Part shown: piece by piece, positions 2,836-59,451 of the stretch
Layout: every line of letters begins with the position of its first letter
How positions within the stretch are numbered: position 1 is the first letter of the stretch
Assembly: GCA_963712115.1 (NCBI GenBank)
Contig: CAVQGX010000032.1
Span: 64,001-128,000, forward strand
Length of the DNA: 64,000 nt
Direction: 5' to 3'
From: an uncultured delta proteobacterium
GTDB taxonomy: Bacteria > Desulfobacterota > Syntrophobacteria > BM002
Translations under genes and position numbers: made by a program
Notes under the pieces: generated by a model
Told to the model about the DNA's origin: nothing
Databases searched by the model: none
The model's input: the letters and a program-made list of their open reading frames with translations, nothing else

Positions 2836-3228
2836 CTAACGTTTCGAGTATTGGAATCTTTTCCTGGCTCCGGGTTGGCCGTATTTTTTTCGCTCCTTCA
2901 CCCTCGAGTCACGGGTTAGGAAGCCTGCCTTTTTCAACAGCGGCCGAAAATCAGGATTGACTTCGAGGAGGGCTTTGGAGATGCCATGTTTAATCGCGCC
3001 AGCCTGGCCCGAAATGCCACCGCCCCGGACATTGACATGAATATCGTATTTTCCCAGGGTCTCTGTCAATTCTAACGGCTGACGAATAACCATCTTGGCG
3101 GTCTCGCGCTTTAGATAGTCGTCAATGTGACGTTTGTTTATGGTGATGTTACCATCTCCCGGCATGAGCCATACCCGGGCGACGGCTGTCTTCCTTTTGC
3201 CAGTGGCGTAGTGGCGTTCCTCACTCAT
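2836..3228 (-). CDS. rpsI: 30S ribosomal protein S9
   Basis: [26 protein letters not shown]...QYSKR. Confidence 0.99.
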
Positions 3229-3244
3229 TAACTAGCTCCTGTCC

Positions 3245-3679
3245 TCAGTAGGGTAGATCGAGCGGCTGAGGCTGTTGGGCCTCATGGGGATGATCTGTCC
3301 CAGCATAAACCTTGAGTTTTTTATAAAGCTGGCGCCCGAGACGATTTTTGGGCAACATGCCCCATACCGCGTAACGCACCAGATCTTCTGGTCTCTTTTC
3401 TCTCAGTTTCTTAGCGGTTATTGCCTTGATCCCGCCCATGTAGCCCGAATGGCGATAGTAGGTTTTTTGTTCCCACTTCCTACCGGTCAATTTGACCTTT
3501 TCAGCATTGATAACAACGATGAAATCGCCAGTATCCGCATGGGGTGTGAAACTGGGCTGATGCTTGCCCCGCAGTCTGCTAGCCACTTGACTGGCCAGTC
3601 TACCCAAAGTCCGATCGGCGGCATCCACCACATACCACTTGCGGTTCTCGGGAATAGTCTTGGCACTGAGTGTTTTCAT
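3245..3679 (-). CDS. rplM: 50S ribosomal protein L13
   Basis: [27 protein letters not shown]; start MKTLSAK at 3679 with GGAG RBS. Confidence 0.98.
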
Positions 3680-3714
3680 GGTTCGACTCCGTAAAGAAAA
3701 GTTACGAATCGGGT

Positions 3715-3743
3715 ATATAACCATGCTTGTTGACACTTGTCAA
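3715..3743 (-). promoter_or_regulatory. Candidate sigma-70 promoter of rplM-rpsI
   Basis: TTGACA (3743-3738), 17 bp, then TTATAT preceded by TGG; the -10 is imperfect. Confidence 0.6.
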
Positions 3744-3755
3744 GAAAAACTAGCA

Positions 3756-3803
3756 CAGGAGTTTCCCCAAAAATATTTTTGTGACATAGGCCACGGGGAA
3801 GCT
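3756..3803. mobile_element. Family C MITE-like terminal fragment
   Basis: caggagtttccccaaaaatatttttgtgacataggccacggggaagct closely matches 58951-58999 and the reverse complement of 32498-32545. Confidence 0.85.
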
Positions 3804-3805
3804 GC

Positions 3806-3835
3806 GAACCGCTGATCGTCCGGCTCATCCACATA
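3806..3835. repeat. Exact 30-bp duplicate of lptD 3' coding sequence (3890-3919)
   Basis: gaaccgctgatcgtccggctcatccacata occurs at both positions. Confidence 0.95.
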
Positions 3836-6076
3836 TCAGAATGTCTGCGCCTTAAGCTCACCAACCCCGTAAAGTTTGATACCCACTGTGAACCGCTGAT
3901 CGTCCGGCTCATCCACATAGCTGAAGGAGATGCCCCAACATTGCCTCTCTATGATCAGATTGTATTCGTTCTTGATCTTTTCGTTCGTGTCTAGCCGGTA
4001 GTTAGCTCGAAGATTCAGAGAAACTCCCTCCCACAACTTCAGACCTAGTTTGGCGTCGATCTCATCCAAAAGGGTCTTGCCGTCTCGGTCGAGTTGCCGC
4101 TGGTAGTCAATATTCAGGCTATCTCCTCGCTCGTCCCAAAGCGCCGCCAACAGGTTATGACTCTTAAACTCTTCATCATAAAGCGACAGCTCGTTCTTGT
4201 AGGTTAGGGTTATATAGCGTCTGGGGGTGAGGTCTAGCTGCGTGAAGACGTTTGAAAAGGGGCGCTTCCTGGTGGTGCTAGGATCATCTTCTCCCCCGTC
4301 GGGCTGGCTGATATCGTAGTGCTGGCTCAGCAGCAATCGAGCGACGTCAAGGTATTCCACCTGGTCGGGACTCTTGTCCAGGCGAGCGGAAAAAAAGTTG
4401 GTCAGGCTGTAGTTTAAACGATTCCTACTGTTAATCCTGTCGGTGGCGTCAAAAAAGGGCAATTTGCTTTGGCTTACTTCAGGCCTGTATTCATAAAGGA
4501 TATTCGGCCTCACCGTGTGTTTGGTCTTAGTCCATGTCTCTCCCTCCATCTCGAAGATCCTCACGATTTCGGCCGATCCTTCCATCCCCGTCTCGAAGAT
4601 TTCTCGGCTCTGAAAGGTCTTTTCTTTAACCCTGCTGTCTGCAGACTCGTCGTACTGGTCAATTAAGTAGAGTGTCTCCAAAAAACCAACAAAAGGCTCG
4701 AGTTCCAGGTACCCGCCCCTACGAAGCGGTAAGGACAACCGTGGAGTAGCGTTCAGTCGATTGCCCCTGGTACCTTCTGGCCTCCAGTAATTTACATAAC
4801 CCGCATCTGCTTCGATAAAAAAGGGCCCCCCCAATAGCGGTTGTCTGGAAGCGTTGTAGGTAATTAAGGGAAGCTGCTGTAGCTGGGTTTCGTCCAAATC
4901 GCTGTCCAGGTTCTGATAATAATGCAGCTGGAAGTTGGCGGATTGGGTAGGCCAAATCTTGTTTAACAGGAGCACTGACTCCCGGGTAGTAACTGTTTCG
5001 TCATTGATTAGACCCCGGCCGAAGGTATTCCTCAATTCCTGGTCGGACTCGCGCCAGCTATTGTATCCTGTGTTAAACGCTCTGAGATAATCGGGATCAC
5101 TGACAAAATCGAGATCCAGGTTTCCCTGAACCTGATAGGGCAAAACAAAATCCTGCTTGGACCGCCACCACCAGCGATCCCGCGTTATTCTGCGGAGGCC
5201 GGCAGCGCTCTCATAGTTATCCTCTTGTAGATCACTTTTGCTTGCCTGATCATCAAGATAATTGAAACGCAACTCGCCCTTACTCTGTGAGCTGGCAGCA
5301 TAACGAAATTCGGGTCCCATCATCAGGCCGCGCTTGCTCATATAGTGGGAGTAGATAGTTGCATCCGTGCTTCTGGAAATAGCCCAGAAAAAGGGCAGGT
5401 CAAAGTCGTATCCCAGCCGTTCACCTAATCCAAAGCGGGGCATCAACAGCCCGGTTTGTCTCTTTGTTTTGGCTGGAAAGGCCAGATAGGGGCTGTAGAG
5501 CACAGGGGCGCGTCCTAGATGAAATCTTGCGTGTTTGGCAAAACCGTATCCTTCCACAGTAACTTTCAGGTCACTGGTTCGGAAATGCCAACTGGGCTCG
5601 TCGCCGTCACAGGTAGTGAAGGTCCCATCCCTCACATGGTAGGTTTGCGGACCTAGCTTTTCCACCAGGGCACCACTGAAGTGAAAATTACCATCCGCGA
5701 GGAAGCCTCTGCCAAACTCGATTAGACCCGTTTCCTTCTCCAGGTCCAGATAGGCACTTTCCCCCTCCAACCAGTCCTTATCCTTCTCTATGCGAATATC
5801 GCCTTCAACTATGGCCTCCATGCTGGCTGCATCCAAGCGAATCTGGTCTGCAAATATAACACTACCCTTGGCGTGCAAAATGACATTACCACTGGCCGTG
5901 TAGATATCCTGCCTTTCATCGTAGGAGAAATTGTCGGCCCTCAGCCGGTAGCCAGAATCCTCTTCCCCCTGAGCGGTGAATTTTTCAGCTCTGTCCTTTG
6001 ACTCTGCGGGCAGTTTGGCAGGGAATAAGAATGTCACAAATAGGCAAAGCCCGAGCATTCTTATTGTCCTTCTCAT
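3836..6076 (-). CDS. lptD: LPS-assembly outer membrane protein
   Basis: Signal peptide, OstA-like N-terminus, FTTCD..PSW, KRQTGLLMP, C-terminal QCW beta-barrel region; 746 aa. Confidence 0.9.
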   Translation of the reverse strand: MRRTIRMLGLCLFVTFLFPAKLPAESKDRAEKFTAQGEEDSGYRLRADNFSYDERQDIYTASGNVILHAKGSVIFADQIRLDAASMEAIVEGDIRIEKDKDWLEGESAYLDLEKETGLIEFGRGFLADGNFHFSGALVEKLGPQTYHVRDGTFTTCDGDEPSWHFRTSDLKVTVEGYGFAKHARFHLGRAPVLYSPYLAFPAKTKRQTGLLMPRFGLGERLGYDFDLPFFWAISRSTDATIYSHYMSKRGLMMGPEFRYAASSQSKGELRFNYLDDQASKSDLQEDNYESAAGLRRITRDRWWWRSKQDFVLPYQVQGNLDLDFVSDPDYLRAFNTGYNSWRESDQELRNTFGRGLINDETVTTRESVLLLNKIWPTQSANFQLHYYQNLDSDLDETQLQQLPLITYNASRQPLLGGPFFIEADAGYVNYWRPEGTRGNRLNATPRLSLPLRRGGYLELEPFVGFLETLYLIDQYDESADSRVKEKTFQSREIFETGMEGSAEIVRIFEMEGETWTKTKHTVRPNILYEYRPEVSQSKLPFFDATDRINSRNRLNYSLTNFFSARLDKSPDQVEYLDVARLLLSQHYDISQPDGGEDDPSTTRKRPFSNVFTQLDLTPRRYITLTYKNELSLYDEEFKSHNLLAALWDERGDSLNIDYQRQLDRDGKTLLDEIDAKLGLKLWEGVSLNLRANYRLDTNEKIKNEYNLIIERQCWGISFSYVDEPDDQRFTVGIKLYGVGELKAQTF

Positions 6077-31365: not shown

Positions 31366-32148
31366 ATGACTATTCGCCAGGATGAGGCGGTCATTCTCCG
31401 CACCAGGGACTACCGCGAATCGGACCGTTTGATTACATTCTTCAGCAGGAGCCAGGGGCAACTCACCGGTATCGCCAAAGGAGCACGGCGCAGTAAGAAA
31501 CGTTTCGTCCACACCCTAGAACCCCTTTCCCACGTCCTGATCACCTATGCAGACAGATCATCCTCTGGGCTAGTGCGCATCGATGCCAGCGAGCTCAGAA
31601 ACGGTTTCATTGAACTCCGCAGCGACATTGCACGTTTAGGCTATGCCAGTCTCAGCTGTGAGGTTGTGCTGGAAATGTCACCGGAACGTCAGGCCAATCC
31701 CACCCTTTTTGTCTTGCTTAATCAATACCTCAAACAGCTGGAGGGAAAAGGGGAGCCTGAAAATTCCTCCTTTTTATTCCTCCTGCGGATGCTGAGCCTG
31801 AGCGGCTATGCTCCAAATCTACAGACATGCCTTCGCTGCGGCCGAGATTCGACTGCTGGTCAGGGCTGGTATTTCTCCATTTCCCAGGGAGGGCTACTCT
31901 GCGGAAATCACCGCCCAGGGGGAAAGGTGTATCAAGTCTCCTTGGGTACAATTATGCTGCTGAGGCAAGCACAACAGCTCCCCCTCGCCAAAGTCTGGCG
32001 CCTGAGATTTCATCGTAAATCCCGGGATGAATGTCGTTTTCTTCTCTTAGACCTTGTCCGACATCATTTAGAGAAAGATCTCAAGTCTCTGAGGCTTCTC
32101 CATCAGATAGGTGCATTAGAATCAACCAACAATTCTGCCAATCCCTAG
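31366..32148 (+). CDS. recO: DNA repair protein RecO
   Basis: YRESDRLITFF, AKGARRS, GYAPNLQTCLRCG zinc finger. Confidence 0.93.
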   Translation: MTIRQDEAVILRTRDYRESDRLITFFSRSQGQLTGIAKGARRSKKRFVHTLEPLSHVLITYADRSSSGLVRIDASELRNGFIELRSDIARLGYASLSCEVVLEMSPERQANPTLFVLLNQYLKQLEGKGEPENSSFLFLLRMLSLSGYAPNLQTCLRCGRDSTAGQGWYFSISQGGLLCGNHRPGGKVYQVSLGTIMLLRQAQQLPLAKVWRLRFHRKSRDECRFLLLDLVRHHLEKDLKSLRLLHQIGALESTNNSANP

Positions 32149-32221
32149 CCTGCCAACATACAAGGCGGTTTACCCTTGGTGTGCAAAGAAAGCGGCCTTG
32201 CTGATCTCTCTTCTGTCGTTC

Positions 32222-32253
32222 CCTCCGGGGCGTAGGCCCCTATGGGCCGGAGG
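32222..32253. repeat. Small GC-rich hairpin (CCTCCGG...CCGGAGG)
   Basis: cctccggggcgtaggcccctatgggccggagg. Confidence 0.6.
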
Positions 32254-32259
32254 CCAGGG

Positions 32260-32545
32260 CTCATCCGTCTGCGGCGGAGTCACTTCTTGCCCGTCTGCAG
32301 CCGGGAAAGTGGCACAGACCTTCCGCAGTCACTCAGAAGAGACATCAGCAAAGGCCAAAAGGGGAAGCTGCCAAACAACGAGCATCTGAGCAACCTTTCT
32401 TTACGAATCTCAGCCTCGATGGGGCCTGCATGAAGATGTGGTGCTTCCTAAACAGGTACTCTGCCAATAAATGGCGCGAATATGATCGTTGTGGAGTAGC
32501 TTCCCCGTGGCCCAAGTCACAGGACTATTTTGGGGGAAACTCCTG
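32260..32545. mobile_element. Family C MITE-like element, distal end not recognisable
   Basis: Reverse complement aligns to 58951-59264 over about 240 bp; ends ...ttttgggggaaactcctg. Confidence 0.88.
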
Positions 32546-32557
32546 TGGACAATAGGC

Positions 32558-32586
32558 TTGACAGACAACCGGCAGCAAGGTAATTT
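32558..32586 (+). promoter_or_regulatory. Sigma-70 promoter of glyQS
   Basis: TTGACA-17 bp-TAATTT. Confidence 0.75.
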
Positions 32587-35758: not shown

Positions 35759-35999
35759 CAGTAGTTTTTCCATCTTATCTATGGTTAACCATCGAGAGTT
35801 ACCCGGCAGGCCATAGCAGCTGCAGTCGCTCACCACCTGCATTAGCCAATACCACCCATAGGTAACAACTTTGCCATGCTCTGGGTAGCCGTCATTGGCT
35901 GATGACAGGGAAAGTCCAATTTCTGATTCCCTCCACTCCAGAGGCCCGTAGTCGAGCAAGTTTCCGGCCGGCCCCATTTTATTTATGGAGAAACTCCAG
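35759..35999. mobile_element. Family C-related MITE (shared TIRs, different interior, 241 bp)
   Basis: Right end tatttatggagaaactccag matches the Family C end at 17/20; left end cagtagtttttccat matches the distal TIR at 59363-59377 at 12/15. Confidence 0.6.
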
Positions 36000-36011: not shown

Positions 36012-36040
36012 TTTACAAGGTTCTGCCTTTTTGTTAGCAT
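36012..36040 (+). promoter_or_regulatory. Sigma-70 promoter of smc-ftsY
   Basis: TTTACA-17 bp-TAGCAT with extended TG. Confidence 0.65.
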
Positions 36041-36321: not shown

Positions 36322-39300
36322 ATGCACATTAAACAGCTTGAACTCTTCGGATTTAAGTCTTTCGTCGACAAAGCCACCGTCACCTTCTCCACCGGGATTT
36401 GTGCGGTAGTAGGACCCAATGGTTGTGGCAAAAGCAACATTGTCGACGCTATTCGCTGGGTTTTAGGAGAACAAAGCGCCAAACAGCTCCGTGGCAAACT
36501 CATGGAGGAGGTCATCTTCGGCGGAGCAAATGGGCGCCCGTCACTGAATTTTACTGAAGTGTCACTTGTTCTCTCCAATGAGGACGGCAAGGCGCCCCCA
36601 CCTTACCACGAACACACCGAGATCATGGTTACCCGTCGCCTTTTTCGTTCAGGAGAAAGCGAATATCTCATAAACAAAATACCTTGCCGCAGAATGGACA
36701 TTAGTAGACTGTTCATGGATGTGGGTGTTGGGCATCGTCACTACGCAATTATCGAACAAGGAAAGATTAGTACAGTAGTAGAGTCCAAGCCAGAAGACAT
36801 TCGCGCTCTTATTGAGGAAGCTGCAGGGATCACCAAGTTTAAAATAAAGAAGAAAGCCGCTCTCCGGAAAATTGAGCTTACTAGGCAAAACCTTCTCCGC
36901 CTTGGTGACATCATCGCCGAAGTTTCACGCCATCTTTCGAGCCTTAAACGTCAGGCCCAGAGGGCAAACCGTTACCGAACCCTTAAAAAAGAAATAAAAC
37001 AAATTGAAATCACCCGAGCCCTGCATCGCTATGGACAATACAACCAGGACTTAAAGCGTCTGGAGCAAGATCTCAGCTCCTTCAACGACCGGCAAGCTGA
37101 GCGGGCGGCTAAATTGGGGAGGTTGGACGCTGAACTGACAGACCGTTCCACCCAGATGCACGAAATAGGTGAAAATTTAAGGCAACGAAGAGAAGCACTG
37201 TTTCAGATCAAGAACTCGATCGGCAGCGACGAAAACAGCCTCCTCCACTTACAACGGCAAAGCCAAGAACTGAAGGAGAGACAACAGCGGTTGACCAAGG
37301 AGATCGAACAGCAGGAGGATCGCCGCAAGCACCTGGCTGAGGAAAGAGATCGACTCACTGAAAAACAGCGTGATTTGGCAGAGGAATGTTCTAAGGCAGA
37401 AGTTCTAGCCCATAAGCTAGAGGAGGAACTAAACCGAGAGAAGTCGCGTTTGAATCAGTTGACAGATGAGCTGGATCTTGGAAAAGGTGAACTTGTTGAT
37501 CTGCTAGGCGAGATGGCCCAGGTGCGCAATGCCCAAATGTCAATGCGCAAGCATCTCGAGGATCTTGATCGCCGTCAAAGCCGGCGCAAATCTGAATACC
37601 AGGAACTCAAGGAAAAGCATGACCGGTTGCAGCCACTGAGGGAAAGCCTTGAAAGCAAAAAGACAGCCATGGAGAGAAAACTTGATGCGCTTTCTGCTCA
37701 AGCTGACTCACTCAATAAGAAAAAGCAAGAACTTGATCAAGTCCGAGATGAATGCACCGAAGTTATAAATAGTCTGGAAAGCACCTACCACCAGCAACAC
37801 TCCCAACTGCAAGTTCTAGTGGAGATGGAGAGTTCCTATGCCTGGTTTAGTGATGCAGTTAGGGAACTGATGAACGCCCGTGATGAGGATGAGCTCAAGT
37901 GTAACATCAGGGGAGCAGTAGCAGAAATGCTGGAAGTAGATGCGAGCCATCGACAAGCGGTTGAGGCGGTTCTCGGCGGCCGTTTGCAGGCTTTGGTAGT
38001 GGATTCAGTCGGAGATGCTTGTGCTGCTTTGGAACACCTGAAGCGTACTGGCGCAGGCCGGAATCACTTCATTCCCCTATCGGTCACCAATCAAAATCCA
38101 AAGCATGGACCTAGCGGAGACGGTCCGGTACCGCTTGCCGGTTTAGTAAGGCCAAGGCCGGGATACGAGCAAGTCGTCAACCACCTGCTGTCCAAGGTCA
38201 TGTTCTGCGACGATCTAAAGCAGGCCCTATCCTGGTGGCAGTCCCATCCCAATGCTTTTGCCCTAGTAACCCCCGAAGGCGATTTGGTAGCCCAGGATGG
38301 AACCCTATGGGGGGGGAGCCCGGAGCAGCAAATAAGTATCTTGGAAAAACAAGAACAGAGAAAGGACCTTGAGGAAAAGGTTTCTAAGTCAGAGAGCAGA
38401 TTAAGCACGGAACGGTCCAAGTTCCGGGAGATAGAGGATCAACTTGCCCAGACAGCTTCTGAGCTCCAGTCAATTCAAGAGGACAAGCAGAAAGGTCGTG
38501 ATCAGATTCTTGAACAAGAAAAGGAACATTACCGTTTAGAGACAGAGGAACAGAGAATTACTGAGCGGCTTGCCATGCTGGACATGGAGAAAGACCACGA
38601 AGAAGAGGAGGTTTCTCATTTGCATGTCGAACTCAGCCAAAGCGAGCAGGAACTTGAGTCTTTAGAAAAAAGGCGACAAGAATTGGACGAAGACCTGGCA
38701 GAGACAAGACATGAACGACAAGAACTGGAAGGCACAGTGGACAATCTCCAAGAAAAGGCCACGGCTCAGCAGGTCTCAGTGGGGGCATTGACTGAGAAGC
38801 AAGAGGCAGCCCGCTCAAGTTACAAGCAGTTGGAAGAGTACTACGCTGAAACCCAACGGCGACTCGAACAACTTCGAGAGGAAAGGAAAAACTGCCAGCA
38901 GCAGATAGAACTGCTTTCGGAAGAAAGGGTTCAAATCCAAGAGCGCTTAGAGCTAGCGCAGAAGCAATTGTCGGAGCGAGAAGAAAGTCTAAGGGCTGAA
39001 GAGGATGAGTGGCGAAAATTTGAAGACCATCAGCACGGTCTTGAATCGCACAGACTCCAATTGATTAAAGAGGACAGAGAAAAGGAGCAAGGGATTCAGA
39101 ATCTGCGCCAAGAAATCACTGAACTCAAACTGAAGATTCAGTATCTCGTCCACCAGATTCAAGAGCATTACCATATGGATATCACCGCTGAACCCCCGCC
39201 CGACTTAGAAGAACCAGTGGATCTTGAAAAATTGGAATCGAAACTGCAGCGGCTCCGCGATCGGGTGGCACGGATTGGCGAGGTGAACTTGACAGCTATC

Positions 39301-39900
39301 GAAGAATACGAAGAACAGCACCAGCGCCACCAATTTCTCACCGGCCAGAGGGATGACCTGGTTCAGTCATTAGAGGGGTTGAATAAGGCCATATCACGCA
39401 TCAACCGAACCACCCGCAACCGCTTTCTAAAAACACTCGAAGCGGTAAATCGCAAGCTCGCTGAGGTTTTTCCTCTGCTTTTCAATGGAGGCACCGGCCA
39501 TTTGCAGTTGTCCTCCGACCGAGATCCCTTGGAGGCTGGCGTGGAAATCTTCGTACATCCTCCCGGCAAAAAGTTGACCAGCATGAGCCTGCTTTCCGGC
39601 GGAGAGAAGGCTCTGGCTGCAGGAGCACTCCTTTTTTCCCTATATATGATCAAACCCAGTCCTTTTTGTATTCTAGATGAGGTAGACGCCCCCCTGGATG
39701 ACGCCAACATAGACCGCTTCATCGAGGTGCTAAAAAAGATTAGCCAAGAGTCGCAAATTATCTTGGTTACGCACAACAAGAGAACTATGGAGATCTCAGA
39801 TATCCTTCTCGGTGTTACCATGGAAGAGCCCGGCATCTCCAAAATAATATCAGTCGATTTTCAAGGAATACCTGAAAGTTATGGCCAGATGGTTCAGTAG
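36322..39900 (+). CDS. smc: Chromosome segregation protein SMC
   Basis: GFKSF, GPNGCGKSN, coiled coils, hinge, LSGGEK, LDEVDAPLD. Confidence 0.98.
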   Translation: MHIKQLELFGFKSFVDKATVTFSTGICAVVGPNGCGKSNIVDAIRWVLGEQSAKQLRGKLMEEVIFGGANGRPSLNFTEVSLVLSNEDGKAPPPYHEHTEIMVTRRLFRSGESEYLINKIPCRRMDISRLFMDVGVGHRHYAIIEQGKISTVVESKPEDIRALIEEAAGITKFKIKKKAALRKIELTRQNLLRLGDIIAEVSRHLSSLKRQAQRANRYRTLKKEIKQIEITRALHRYGQYNQDLKRLEQDLSSFNDRQAERAAKLGRLDAELTDRSTQMHEIGENLRQRREALFQIKNSIGSDENSLLHLQRQSQELKERQQRLTKEIEQQEDRRKHLAEERDRLTEKQRDLAEECSKAEVLAHKLEEELNREKSRLNQLTDELDLGKGELVDLLGEMAQVRNAQMSMRKHLEDLDRRQSRRKSEYQELKEKHDRLQPLRESLESKKTAMERKLDALSAQADSLNKKKQELDQVRDECTEVINSLESTYHQQHSQLQVLVEMESSYAWFSDAVRELMNARDEDELKCNIRGAVAEMLEVDASHRQAVEAVLGGRLQALVVDSVGDACAALEHLKRTGAGRNHFIPLSVTNQNPKHGPSGDGPVPLAGLVRPRPGYEQVVNHLLSKVMFCDDLKQALSWWQSHPNAFALVTPEGDLVAQDGTLWGGSPEQQISILEKQEQRKDLEEKVSKSESRLSTERSKFREIEDQLAQTASELQSIQEDKQKGRDQILEQEKEHYRLETEEQRITERLAMLDMEKDHEEEEVSHLHVELSQSEQELESLEKRRQELDEDLAETRHERQELEGTVDNLQEKATAQQVSVGALTEKQEAARSSYKQLEEYYAETQRRLEQLREERKNCQQQIELLSEERVQIQERLELAQKQLSEREESLRAEEDEWRKFEDHQHGLESHRLQLIKEDREKEQGIQNLRQEITELKLKIQYLVHQIQEHYHMDITAEPPPDLEEPVDLEKLESKLQRLRDRVARIGEVNLTAIEEYEEQHQRHQFLTGQRDDLVQSLEGLNKAISRINRTTRNRFLKTLEAVNRKLAEVFPLLFNGGTGHLQLSSDRDPLEAGVEIFVHPPGKKLTSMSLLSGGEKALAAGALLFSLYMIKPSPFCILDEVDAPLDDANIDRFIEVLKKISQESQIILVTHNKRTMEISDILLGVTMEEPGISKIISVDFQGIPESYGQMVQ

Positions 39901-57349: not shown

Positions 57350-58768
57350 CTACTCATTTCCACCTTCCGTCTTCTGCTCTCTGTCTTCTGCCCTCTGTCT
57401 TCTGCCCTCTGCCTGCTTTCCCCTACTCCCCGTCCTCCGTCTTTGGCGCTCTTCCCGAACCTGGTGGCGCCAGTGCCTCAAACGCTCTGCCAGAGTCACC
57501 TCATAGCCTCGACTTGTGGGCTGGTAAAATTTAAGGTGCTGCAAATCCTCCGGCAGGTAACTCATGGGTACGTGAGCCTCCGGAAAATCATGAGGATAAC
57601 GGTAGTCGCGGCCATAACCCAACTTGCGCATCAGGCCCGTCGGTGCGTTGCGCAGCTCCATTGGTACTGGCAAGCTGCCCCTTTCCTCGGCCTGCCGGCG
57701 AGCTTCGGAGTAAGCCTCATAAAGGGCATTGCTTTTTGGCGCCGTCGCCAGATAGATTGCTGCTTCAGCCAGGGCCAGATCTCCTTCAGGCCGTCCCACT
57801 AAATGAAAGGCCTGCTGGGCTGCCACCGCTACCATAAGAGCCCGAGGATCGGCTAAACCCACATCTTCCGAGGCGAAACGCACCATTCTGCGAGCAATGT
57901 AAAGAGGGTCCTCTCCCGCCTCTAGCATTCTAGCAAGCCAGTAAAGGGCCCCGTCCGGATCGCTTCCGCGCAAACTTTTGTGGAGAGCCGAAATCAGGTT
58001 GTAGTGTTCCTCGCCGTCTTTGTCATAAATAAGAGACTTCTTCAGGATCGCATCTGCCATTGCCTGGCGGTCTACTTGACGATAACCACTCTCATCCTCA
58101 GCAGTAGTCTGCGCCGCCGCCTCCAAGCCACTCAGGGCCAAACGGGCATCTCCTTTTGCCGCTCGGATCAAATAAGTCAGGGCGTCATTGTCCACCTTGG
58201 GTCTCAGACCTCCCAATCCCCTTTCTTTGTCAGCCAGGGCGCGACGGAGAATAAGTTCCAGATCGGACTCATTCAAAGGTTCGAGCACCACCACTGGTGC
58301 TCGCGAAAGGAGTGGCGGAATGACTTCAAAGGAAGGATTCTCTGTGGTTGCCCCGAAAAAAGTTACCGTACCGTTCTCCACATATGGGAGGAGTAGGTCC
58401 TGCTGGGCCTTGTTGAAGCGATGAATTTCATCCACAAATAGTATAGTGGGCCTACCTATTTTTTGCCTGGCTTCATCTATGGCAGCACGAACGTCCTTGA
58501 CTCCAGCAGTGACAGCGGAAAGGTTTATCAGGTGAGCATGATTCTCTTGCGCTATTAACCGGGCCAGAGTGGTTTTACCGCAACCTGGTGGTCCCCAGAA
58601 AATTAGGGATTGCATCCGACCATGCTTGAGCAGACGGCCCAAAAGCTTTTGAGGAGCCATGATTTGCTCCTGCCCCACAAACTCAGCCACGGTGGTAGGC
58701 CGCATTCTCTCTGCCAGTGGTGCTTCTGACTCCCTGCCAGCCGTTGCAAAAAAATCCTCTTGTTTCAA
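57350..58768 (-). CDS. rarA: Replication-associated recombination protein A (MgsA/RarA)
   Basis: [47 protein letters not shown]; repeat-derived tail. Confidence 0.96.
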
Positions 58769-58796
58769 AGCCCCATCCGCCCATATTAGGAATTAA

Positions 58797-58871
58797 TCAG
58801 CAGCTAGCTATCAGCCATCAGCAAGATATGATCTTGCATCAGCTGACCACTGAAATCTGATAGCTGACAGC
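58797..58871. repeat. Heptamer-periodic inverted repeat in the rarA leader
   Basis: gctatca gccatca gc ... gctgacc actgaaa tctgata gctgaca gc. Confidence 0.65.
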
Positions 58872-58908
58872 TCGACTATCATTAGTGATTTCAAGGGATT
58901 TGAGCGAA

Positions 58909-58937
58909 ACCTTACCCCAAGCATACTGGTTTGTCAA
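58909..58937 (-). promoter_or_regulatory. Sigma-70 promoter of rarA
   Basis: TTGACA-17 bp-TAAGGT. Confidence 0.7.
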
Positions 58938-58950
58938 TGGAGGTAGGCAA

Positions 58951-59377
58951 CAGGAGTTTCGCCAAGAATATTATTGTGACATAGGCCACGGGAAGGCTAC
59001 TCCACAACGATCATATTCGCGCCATTTATTGGCAGAGTTCCTGTTCAGGAAGCACCACATCTTCATGCAACCCCTTTCAAGGCTGAGATTGTTAAGGATA
59101 GGTTGCTCAGATGCTCGTTGTTTCGCAGCCTCCCCTTTCGGCCTTTGCTGATGTCTCTTCTGAGTGACCTGCCCTGTTGAATCCCACCTTCGGTGGGTCC
59201 GCGGAGCGGAATTCAACAGGGCTAGCGGAAGGTCTGTGCCACTTCTCCGCCGACGGCGGATGAGACTCGGAACTATAGAAGAAACACCAGGAAACCATTT
59301 TTGTTTCCAAATCACCCACAACTCTATAATGAGCTGAATCCACAGCCACGAGGCAAGAAATTTTGGAGAAATTACTG
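58951..59377. mobile_element. Family C MITE, apparently complete copy (427 bp including a nested hairpin)
   Basis: Imperfect TIRs caggagtttcgccaagaata / aaattttggagaaattactg; degenerate 10-bp flanks aggtaggcaa / aggcaggtag. Confidence 0.8.
59169..59224. repeat. Hairpin inserted within the Family C element
   Basis: gccctgttgaat...attcaacagggc; absent from the 32260-32545 copy (gtgac-t-gcggaagg). Confidence 0.85.
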
Positions 59378-59451
59378 AGGCAGGTAGGTGAGTAATGCGA
59401 GGGACTTTCGCTAATTACTAAGCGGGTGTAGTGGCTAGTGAGAAATCTTCC

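Follow-up and report, generated by a model that had tools for sequence, protein, structure and literature searches.

A Tn5-like MITE family found at a fixed short distance upstream of predicted sigma-70 promoters in an uncultured delta proteobacterium

In a stretch of DNA from an uncultured delta proteobacterium (Desulfobacterota; Syntrophobacteria; BM002), the same terminal repeat lies beside four genes, each time 12 or 13 bases from a -35 hexamer. Does a transposon choose the base pairs just upstream of sigma-70 promoters, or does the promoter word belong to the element itself? The stretch analysed here (the window) comprises 64,000 nt, namely positions 64,001 to 128,000 of the forward strand of contig CAVQGX010000032.1 in assembly GCA_963712115.1; the whole genome contains 4.9 Mb in 70 contigs and is 94.4% complete. 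A sequence-only reading of the window had attributed the pattern to a MITE family that targets promoters. The four-site observation behind that proposal was confirmed, and its interpretation was partly supported.

The repeat and the promoters in the window

A scan of the window with the 20-mer repeat, allowing up to three mismatches, yielded four matches, at 3756 (+), 32545 (-), 35999 (-) and 58951 (+), compared to 0.02 in shuffled sequences. All four previously noticed sites were thus recovered, with 0 to 3 mismatches. NCBIfam agrees with the names of all four genes (rplM, glyQ, smc and the rarA-like gene), and the intervals of 12, 12, 12 and 13 unrelated bases between the element end and the -35 box were reproduced. 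The -35 and -10 hexamers, separated by 17 bp at each locus, were read directly from the sequence and rescored with the promoter score used below.

The copy upstream of the rarA-like gene is a MITE of 427 bp (58951..59377, plus strand) with its End-A TIR at 58951-58969. Its second TIR, which had already been proposed, is real, although degenerate (59359-59377, 4/19 mismatches). Over the first 222-292 bp, this copy is 88-95% identical to about 20 other copies in the genome. It is flanked by a degenerate 10-bp target duplication, whose promoter-side copy AGGTAGGCAA (58941..58950) and other copy AGGCAGGTAG (59378-59387) are identical by eye at 7/10 positions. The predicted promoter of the rarA-like gene (58909..58937, minus strand) has its -35 box TTGACA at 58932-58937, 13 nt from the element end, and, after a 17-bp spacer, the -10 box TAAGGT at 58909-58914; the gene downstream of it encodes a rarA-like AAA ATPase (57350..58768, minus strand). 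The leader between promoter and ORF (58769-58908, about 130 nt) is conserved across the genus, with 94% identity over 68 bases in one relative (G013), and may hold a regulatory RNA element; Rfam has no match there.

Upstream of rplM, an End-A remnant of about 49 bp remains (3756..3804, plus strand; TIR 3756-3774; HMM positions 2-49), 12 nt from the predicted promoter (3715..3743, minus strand; TTGACA 3738-3743, 17 bp, TTATAT 3715-3720). Metatranscriptome contigs from four runs (window positions 2900-4100) cover rplM, and some continue through the promoter into the TIR, although contigs of this kind cannot show transcription starts. Beside glyQ, a MITE copy without its End-B terminus (32120..32545, minus strand; End-A TIR 32527-32545) likewise ends 12 nt from a predicted promoter (32558..32586, plus strand; TTGACA 32558-32563, 17 bp, TAATTT 32581-32586). 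The recO ORF (31366-32148) ends within this truncated copy, and its last codons and stop apparently come from the element (32120-32148).

The fourth site carries the TIR of a divergent related element (35981..35999, minus strand; 3/20 mismatches), the interior of which has no match to the MITE HMM. The predicted promoter upstream of smc (36012..36040, plus strand; TTTACA 36012-36017, 17 bp, TAGCAT 36035-36040) begins 12 nt from this TIR, and smc itself was assigned to 36322-39900 by NCBIfam. The second TIR claimed for this element at 35759-35773 was absent at up to 6/19 mismatches, and by eye about 12/19 positions match. Within the same element, a 94-bp stretch (35822-35913) is 83% identical to positions 58024-58117 of the same contig (C32), outside the window; these two stretches may represent a second small repeat family.

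The MITE family and its autonomous partner

Seven full elements bounded by the repeat were found genome-wide. They measure 437-528 bp, have 19-bp TIRs and contain GC-rich internal hairpins as well as sub-terminal regions of two kinds, End A and End B. An nhmmer search with the element HMM produced 45 genome matches; combined with a TIR scan, these gave a curated set of 26 elements with 36 ends in all, and many of the elements are remnants with a single end. In the pooled set of genome and external copies, 23 elements have clean repeats, with target duplications of 8 bp (1 element), 9 bp (7), 10 bp (10) and 11 bp (5). The elements are thus short, non-coding and multi-copy, have TIRs and target duplications, and share their ends with an autonomous insertion sequence (described below), as MITEs do. 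A structured RNA, such as an IscB/TnpB guide RNA or a HEARO-like RNA, was also considered as an identity for the repeat and rejected: at the Rfam gathering thresholds there were no matches in the window, and the TIR and duplication anatomy leads to a MITE.

Scanning one genome per species for the exact 19-mer retrieved at least 114 stretches. The records listed come from Syntrophobacterales, Deltaproteobacteria, Desulfobacteraceae, Verrucomicrobiota, Acidobacteriota, Aminicenantales, Brocadiaceae and others, and among these matches the same ends enclose many different interiors. In three loci from Bacteroidetes and Crocinitomicaceae records (L035, L069 and L110), the context of the 19-mer is conserved on both sides between species; there the 19-mer seems to belong to a gene and not to the end of a transposon, and such loci dilute the census reported below.

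At two loci among the matches listed, a transposase gene lies between the ends: a 1.46-kb autonomous insertion sequence with a single ORF (L124, positions 4-1475) and a deleted copy (L048). The search for an autonomous element with the same TIRs, which the sequence-only reading had called for, therefore succeeded. The TIR begins with CAGGAG, and the ORF encodes a 417-aa DDE transposase with at least 1568 homologues of about 417-419 aa, most of which have a precomputed PF01609 match. Among 14 aligned homologues, D99, D186 and E310 are invariant (spacings 87 and 124), and the motif Y-x2-R-x3-E-x6-K (Y303, R306, E310 and a K seven residues on) is present in 13; the L124 transposase has a 3-residue insertion at this motif. 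A profile search against the PDB returned Tn5 transposase entries alone (E 8e-6), and Foldseek with a predicted model placed Tn5 transposase at the top (E 3e-12, TM 0.53). The mean pLDDT of this model is 61.9; its core is well predicted, and the N- and C-terminal domains are below pLDDT 50. An extra domain is not visible in the compact 417-aa protein, the terminal parts of the model being of low confidence.

Members of the IS4 family are distinguished by D(60-110)D(100-150)E spacing and a Y(2)R(3)E(6)K motif, according to the accessible text of De Palmenaer et al. 2008 (PMC2266710). Like the IS50/Tn5, IS10, IS231 and IS4 elements treated in that text, the L124-type element combines this DDE spacing and the YREK motif with a single ORF, CA ends, a duplication of about one helical turn, and sequence and fold likeness to Tn5. 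Unlike the catalogued IS4 subgroups, it does not reach the curated cut-offs of the models: its best score against the NCBIfam IS4 models is 34.9 bits (about 35 for the group, with cut-offs of 152-250), and Pfam DDE_Tnp_1 (PF01609) gives 19.9 bits, below the cut-off of 23. Judged by these sequence features, the L124-type element is assigned to the IS4 family as an uncatalogued or distant subgroup. The proposal that the window contains MITEs of an IS4-type element was accordingly upheld by TIR and duplication anatomy, transposase motifs and Tn5 matches.

The window has no cognate transposase, as had been noted, and none was found in the whole genome by protein search or in this genome and 40 relatives by profile search (E 1e-10). 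Two kinds of candidate were rejected: a solo TIR at position 66968 of contig C46 has no transposase beside it, and none of the ten PF01609 loci of this genome (L001-L010) has paired TIRs. The MITEs of this genome are orphans in the assemblies searched.

Promoter distance, register and competing explanations

To plot distances from the element to promoter words, ends with up to three mismatches were pooled from this genome (33) and from loci L011-L124 among the matches listed (150). Removal of near-identical flanks left 173 ends, some of them chance or gene-internal 19-mer matches like those in the Bacteroidetes loci. GTCAA (TTGAC on the gene strand) occurs 11-14 nt outside the end in 53 of these 173, with counts of 6, 24, 15 and 8 at offsets 11, 12, 13 and 14 (mode 12) and at most 2 at every other offset from 0 to 65; TTGAC in the opposite orientation has no peak over the same range. 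A sharp peak upstream of -35-like words therefore exists both in this genome and across phyla. When the 53 sites were aligned on TTGAC, T18 (36 sites), A19 (37), T23 (28) and G16 (23) stood out, a profile that reads as a 17-bp spacer followed by a -10 box, in many cases an extended one; the bases between the end and the -35 box differ between sites. A simple two-box promoter score, based on E. coli frequencies, reached at least 7 in 79 cases at offsets 11-14, compared to 1.1 per other offset. Because 46% of the ends score and only one end per element faces a given promoter, most elements sit at a promoter. In this genome, 17/26 elements face a promoter at a score of at least 7, and 9/26 score below 7 on both sides.

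The same behaviour was observed in autonomous metagenome copies whose transposases are 48-83% identical to that of L124. Here, the promoter box is found mainly at the end downstream of the transposase gene (18/41 right sides vs 5/44 left sides, two of the latter sharing a flank).

The distance can be resolved further. In the clean-duplication set, subtracting the duplication length from the TTGAC offset leaves 3 in 10/10 cases. TTG starts exactly 3 bp past the duplication in 20/23 elements (22/46 flanks), and every other TTG spacing from 0 to 8 is found in at most 2 elements; as three of the 23 elements represent one orthologous site, 18/21 independent sites obey the rule. The spread of 11-14 nt thus results from variable duplication length and not from a loose tether. 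Of the 12-13 bp ruler suggested earlier, the distance holds; the true ruler is 3 bp measured from the duplication, and the remainder is the duplication itself. The 3-bp spacer is C-rich and T-poor across the 53 sites (T 1/53 at -1; C 22-25/53 at -1 to -3), compared to 24-34% C and 23-36% T in the spacers of control promoter-like sites of the genome. In some targets (e.g., L085 and L071), the sequence upstream of the -35 box, T-rich and then C-rich (TTTCCCC-TTGACA), resembles the TTTCCCC at TIR positions 7-13; the DNA-binding surface that grips the TIR may perhaps also touch the target.

A fixed distance to TTGACA could hint at a composite unit in which the -35 box is part of the element, or the repeat could be a regulatory motif instead of a transposon. 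Comparison with relatives makes this reading almost certainly wrong. At the rarA site, five relatives without the element keep the -35 word (TTGTCAA on the plus strand) and the conserved downstream sequence; in another, a different insert of about 300 bp starts 12 bp from the box, and its ends resemble related TIRs by eye. The glyQ site is empty in 14 of 16 genus members and occupied in 2, and TTGACA-N17-TAA(T/C)TT is present in 16/16. At the rplM site, 12 loci could be assessed, 9 of them empty and 3 occupied (one 2 bp further out), and the promoter is kept in 12/12. Empty orthologous sites thus retain TTGACA-N17-TAnnnT, the promoters are host-derived, as had been supposed, and TTGACA does not arrive with the element. 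The promoters are older than the insertions. Moreover, the target duplication does not include the box, the bases in between vary from site to site, and autonomous copies with a transposase gene exist.

Some sites carry more than one insertion history. One orthologous site, recognised by the same flanks and duplication, is found at 81783-82219 of contig C21, at 3257-3690 of L032 and at 1302-1787 of L046; likewise, L088 corresponds to L106. At both sites, orientations are opposite or interiors different across genomes (by eye), which suggests repeated insertion or end-to-end inversion. At five loci (L039, L133, L138, L141 and L197), two element ends abut, exactly 9-10 bp apart. In L039 (7477-7830), the spacer between the ends is the target duplication of the promoter-proximal MITE, which fits a promoter that was hit twice and left intact by insertion. 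As an alternative, abutting ends in short metagenome contigs could represent a circular or tandem form of the insertion sequence, which would be unusual for a Tn5-like element.

These observations bear on a further explanation, namely that insertion is nearly random and that selection or deletion bias leaves the promoter-adjacent copies. Many copies are indeed one-ended remnants, and in this genome the end that was kept faces a promoter-like site in 9/16 at a score of at least 7, or in 11/16 if borderline scores of 6.7 and 6.9 are included, as would be expected if deletions reaching into the promoter were counter-selected. Decay seems to spare the promoter-side end, although this trend is not significant. 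Five of the one-ended copies are just about 50 bp long. On the other side, selection cannot give rise to a single-base register, one site holds different elements or orientations in different genomes, and intact insertion sequences show the same behaviour. We regard near-random insertion as very improbable, and true insertion targeting of promoters as highly probable.

What the transpososome recognises is a separate issue. In the simplest account, it reads TTGAC and the C-rich spacer 3 bp outside the cleavage site on naked DNA, and the accompanying -10 boxes reflect survival, insertions upstream of real promoters being harmless enough to persist. The exact 3-bp register and the spacer composition relative to control promoters agree with this account. 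Perfect TTGAC is expected in roughly one in five sigma-70 promoters, and the 53 ends that carry it, out of about 80 promoter-facing ends, are well above that level. Furthermore, TTG is mirror-symmetric on both sides in three elements (L084, L090 and C30 64315-64591), and a symmetric dimer could read both.

The -10 boxes were compared with intergenic controls, which come from one genome with crude ORF calls, whereas the sites are drawn from many genomes. Of the TTGACs at element ends, 16/53 are followed by TANNNT after a 17-bp spacer, vs 154/2308 intergenic TTGACs of this genome (p 4e-7). Where the box is weak (TTGnnn other than TTGAC), 16/32 ends carry TANNNT at spacers 16-18, vs 1761/31755 (5.5%) of intergenic TTG sites and 7/71 TTGs that lie at other offsets of those flanks (p 2e-12). 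The 120 ends that lack GTCAA show a TANNNT peak at a distance of 35-37 nt, with 27 matches vs about 2.3 per other offset. Since weak-box ends have a -10 box as often as TTGAC ends do (26/53 at spacers 15-18), the target is the whole promoter. This speaks more for docking on RNA polymerase bound at the promoter than for mere reading of the sequence. Selection could also enrich promoters, but harmless TTG sites outside promoters should be plentiful, yet they go unused. Intact autonomous copies, which have perfect duplications and are presumably young, conform to the pattern as well. For these reasons we lean towards docking and consider readout of naked DNA alone possible, though somewhat doubtful.

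By the 3-bp rule, strand transfer on the promoter side takes place exactly 3 bp ahead of TTG in a sigma-70-type -35 box, and the other strand transfer 8-11 bp further upstream, producing the target duplication; these positions leave the element end 11-14 bp from the -35 box and the promoter intact. Under the docking reading, the transpososome would locate its site via the promoter-bound RNA polymerase holoenzyme, probably through sigma region 4, with the register set where it touches the -35 DNA and the C-rich spacer of 3 bp. With the hexamer numbered -35 to -30, the duplicated segment covers about -47 to -39. Class II activators, which touch sigma region 4, occupy about -47 to -39, so that the transpososome would take their place. 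Two points count against docking: direct DNA readout would account just as well for the exact register and for the abundance of perfect TTGAC, and the transposase is compact, with no visible extra domain. We give an even chance to involvement of polymerase or sigma in targeting. The full explanation, in which MITEs of a Tn5-like insertion sequence are targeted to promoters by a transpososome that docks on the promoter-bound holoenzyme, is the best available and in our judgement about equally apt to be right or wrong. That a large Tn5-like family (at least 1568 homologues in several phyla) as a whole docks in this manner, at the class II activator place and with the -35 box as a single-base ruler, is a more tentative proposal, to which we assign somewhat less than even chances.

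The sequence-only reading had further suggested that the A/T-rich element end acts as an UP element for the genes. UP elements occupy the region of roughly -40 to -60. At these sites, host DNA makes up the 12 bp adjoining the -35 box, the G/C-containing CAGGAGTTTCCCC extends over about -48 to -60, and the A/T run begins only at about -61. The A/T-rich part (about -61 to -75) would thus fall outside the UP region, and the idea finds no support.

Relation to known systems and biological meaning

Promoter targeting by bacterial DDE transposons has already been published for Mutator-like elements. According to the accessible text of PMC3942029 (citing Brochet et al. 2009), the p-MULT elements, namely TnGBS, the ISLre2 family and the ISKra4 group, share an insertion site 15-17 bp ahead of sigma-A promoters; for the TnGBS group it was proposed there, by analogy with Ty3, that the RNA polymerase initiation complex is contacted. 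As far as that text goes, the elements described here resemble them in being DDE transposons placed at a fixed short distance upstream of a sigma-A/sigma-70 -35 box, with oriented insertion when the two ends differ and insertion both ways when they are near-perfect repeats. The transposase is different: those of TnGBS, ISLre2 and ISKra4 are Mutator-like, whereas the one found here matches solely DDE_Tnp_1/IS4 and Tn5, and the habit is therefore convergent. In comparison with the same text, the element end lies closer to the -35 box, at 11-14 bp (mode 12) instead of 15-17 bp; this distance breaks down into exactly 3 bp and a duplication of variable length, and the habit is carried on by orphan MITEs.

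For the IS4 family, the accessible text of PMC2266710 reports target consensus sequences of subgroups, and the word 'promoter' is absent from its main text. No report of promoter targeting by an IS4-type element was found in the literature searched, which included few subscription journals and lay outside supplements, ISfinder and TnPedia; within that literature, promoter targeting in bacteria was found described solely for Mutator-like elements. The yeast elements Ty3 and Tf1, which had been invoked as a parallel, also integrate at a fixed place near promoters under guidance of the transcription machinery. Unlike the present element, however, they are eukaryotic retroelements whose integrases bind TFIIIB/TFIIIC or activators, and they share neither homology nor chemistry with it.

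By aiming at promoters, a transposon avoids killing genes and gains the ability to rewire expression or insulate it. A Tn5-like family with the same habit as the Mutator-like elements means that promoter targeting has evolved more than once, and the rule of 3 bp from TTG provides a precise thing to explain. The question now rests on the best-understood transposase scaffold, which readily allows in vitro tests in the presence and absence of RNA polymerase. If the docking reading is true, these elements would be convergent with the Mutator-like TnGBS group and homing to promoters would be a safe-harbour strategy, and the Tn5 scaffold would open the mechanism to structural study and perhaps to engineering. 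In uncultured bacteria, moreover, the ends of such elements mark real promoters of core genes.
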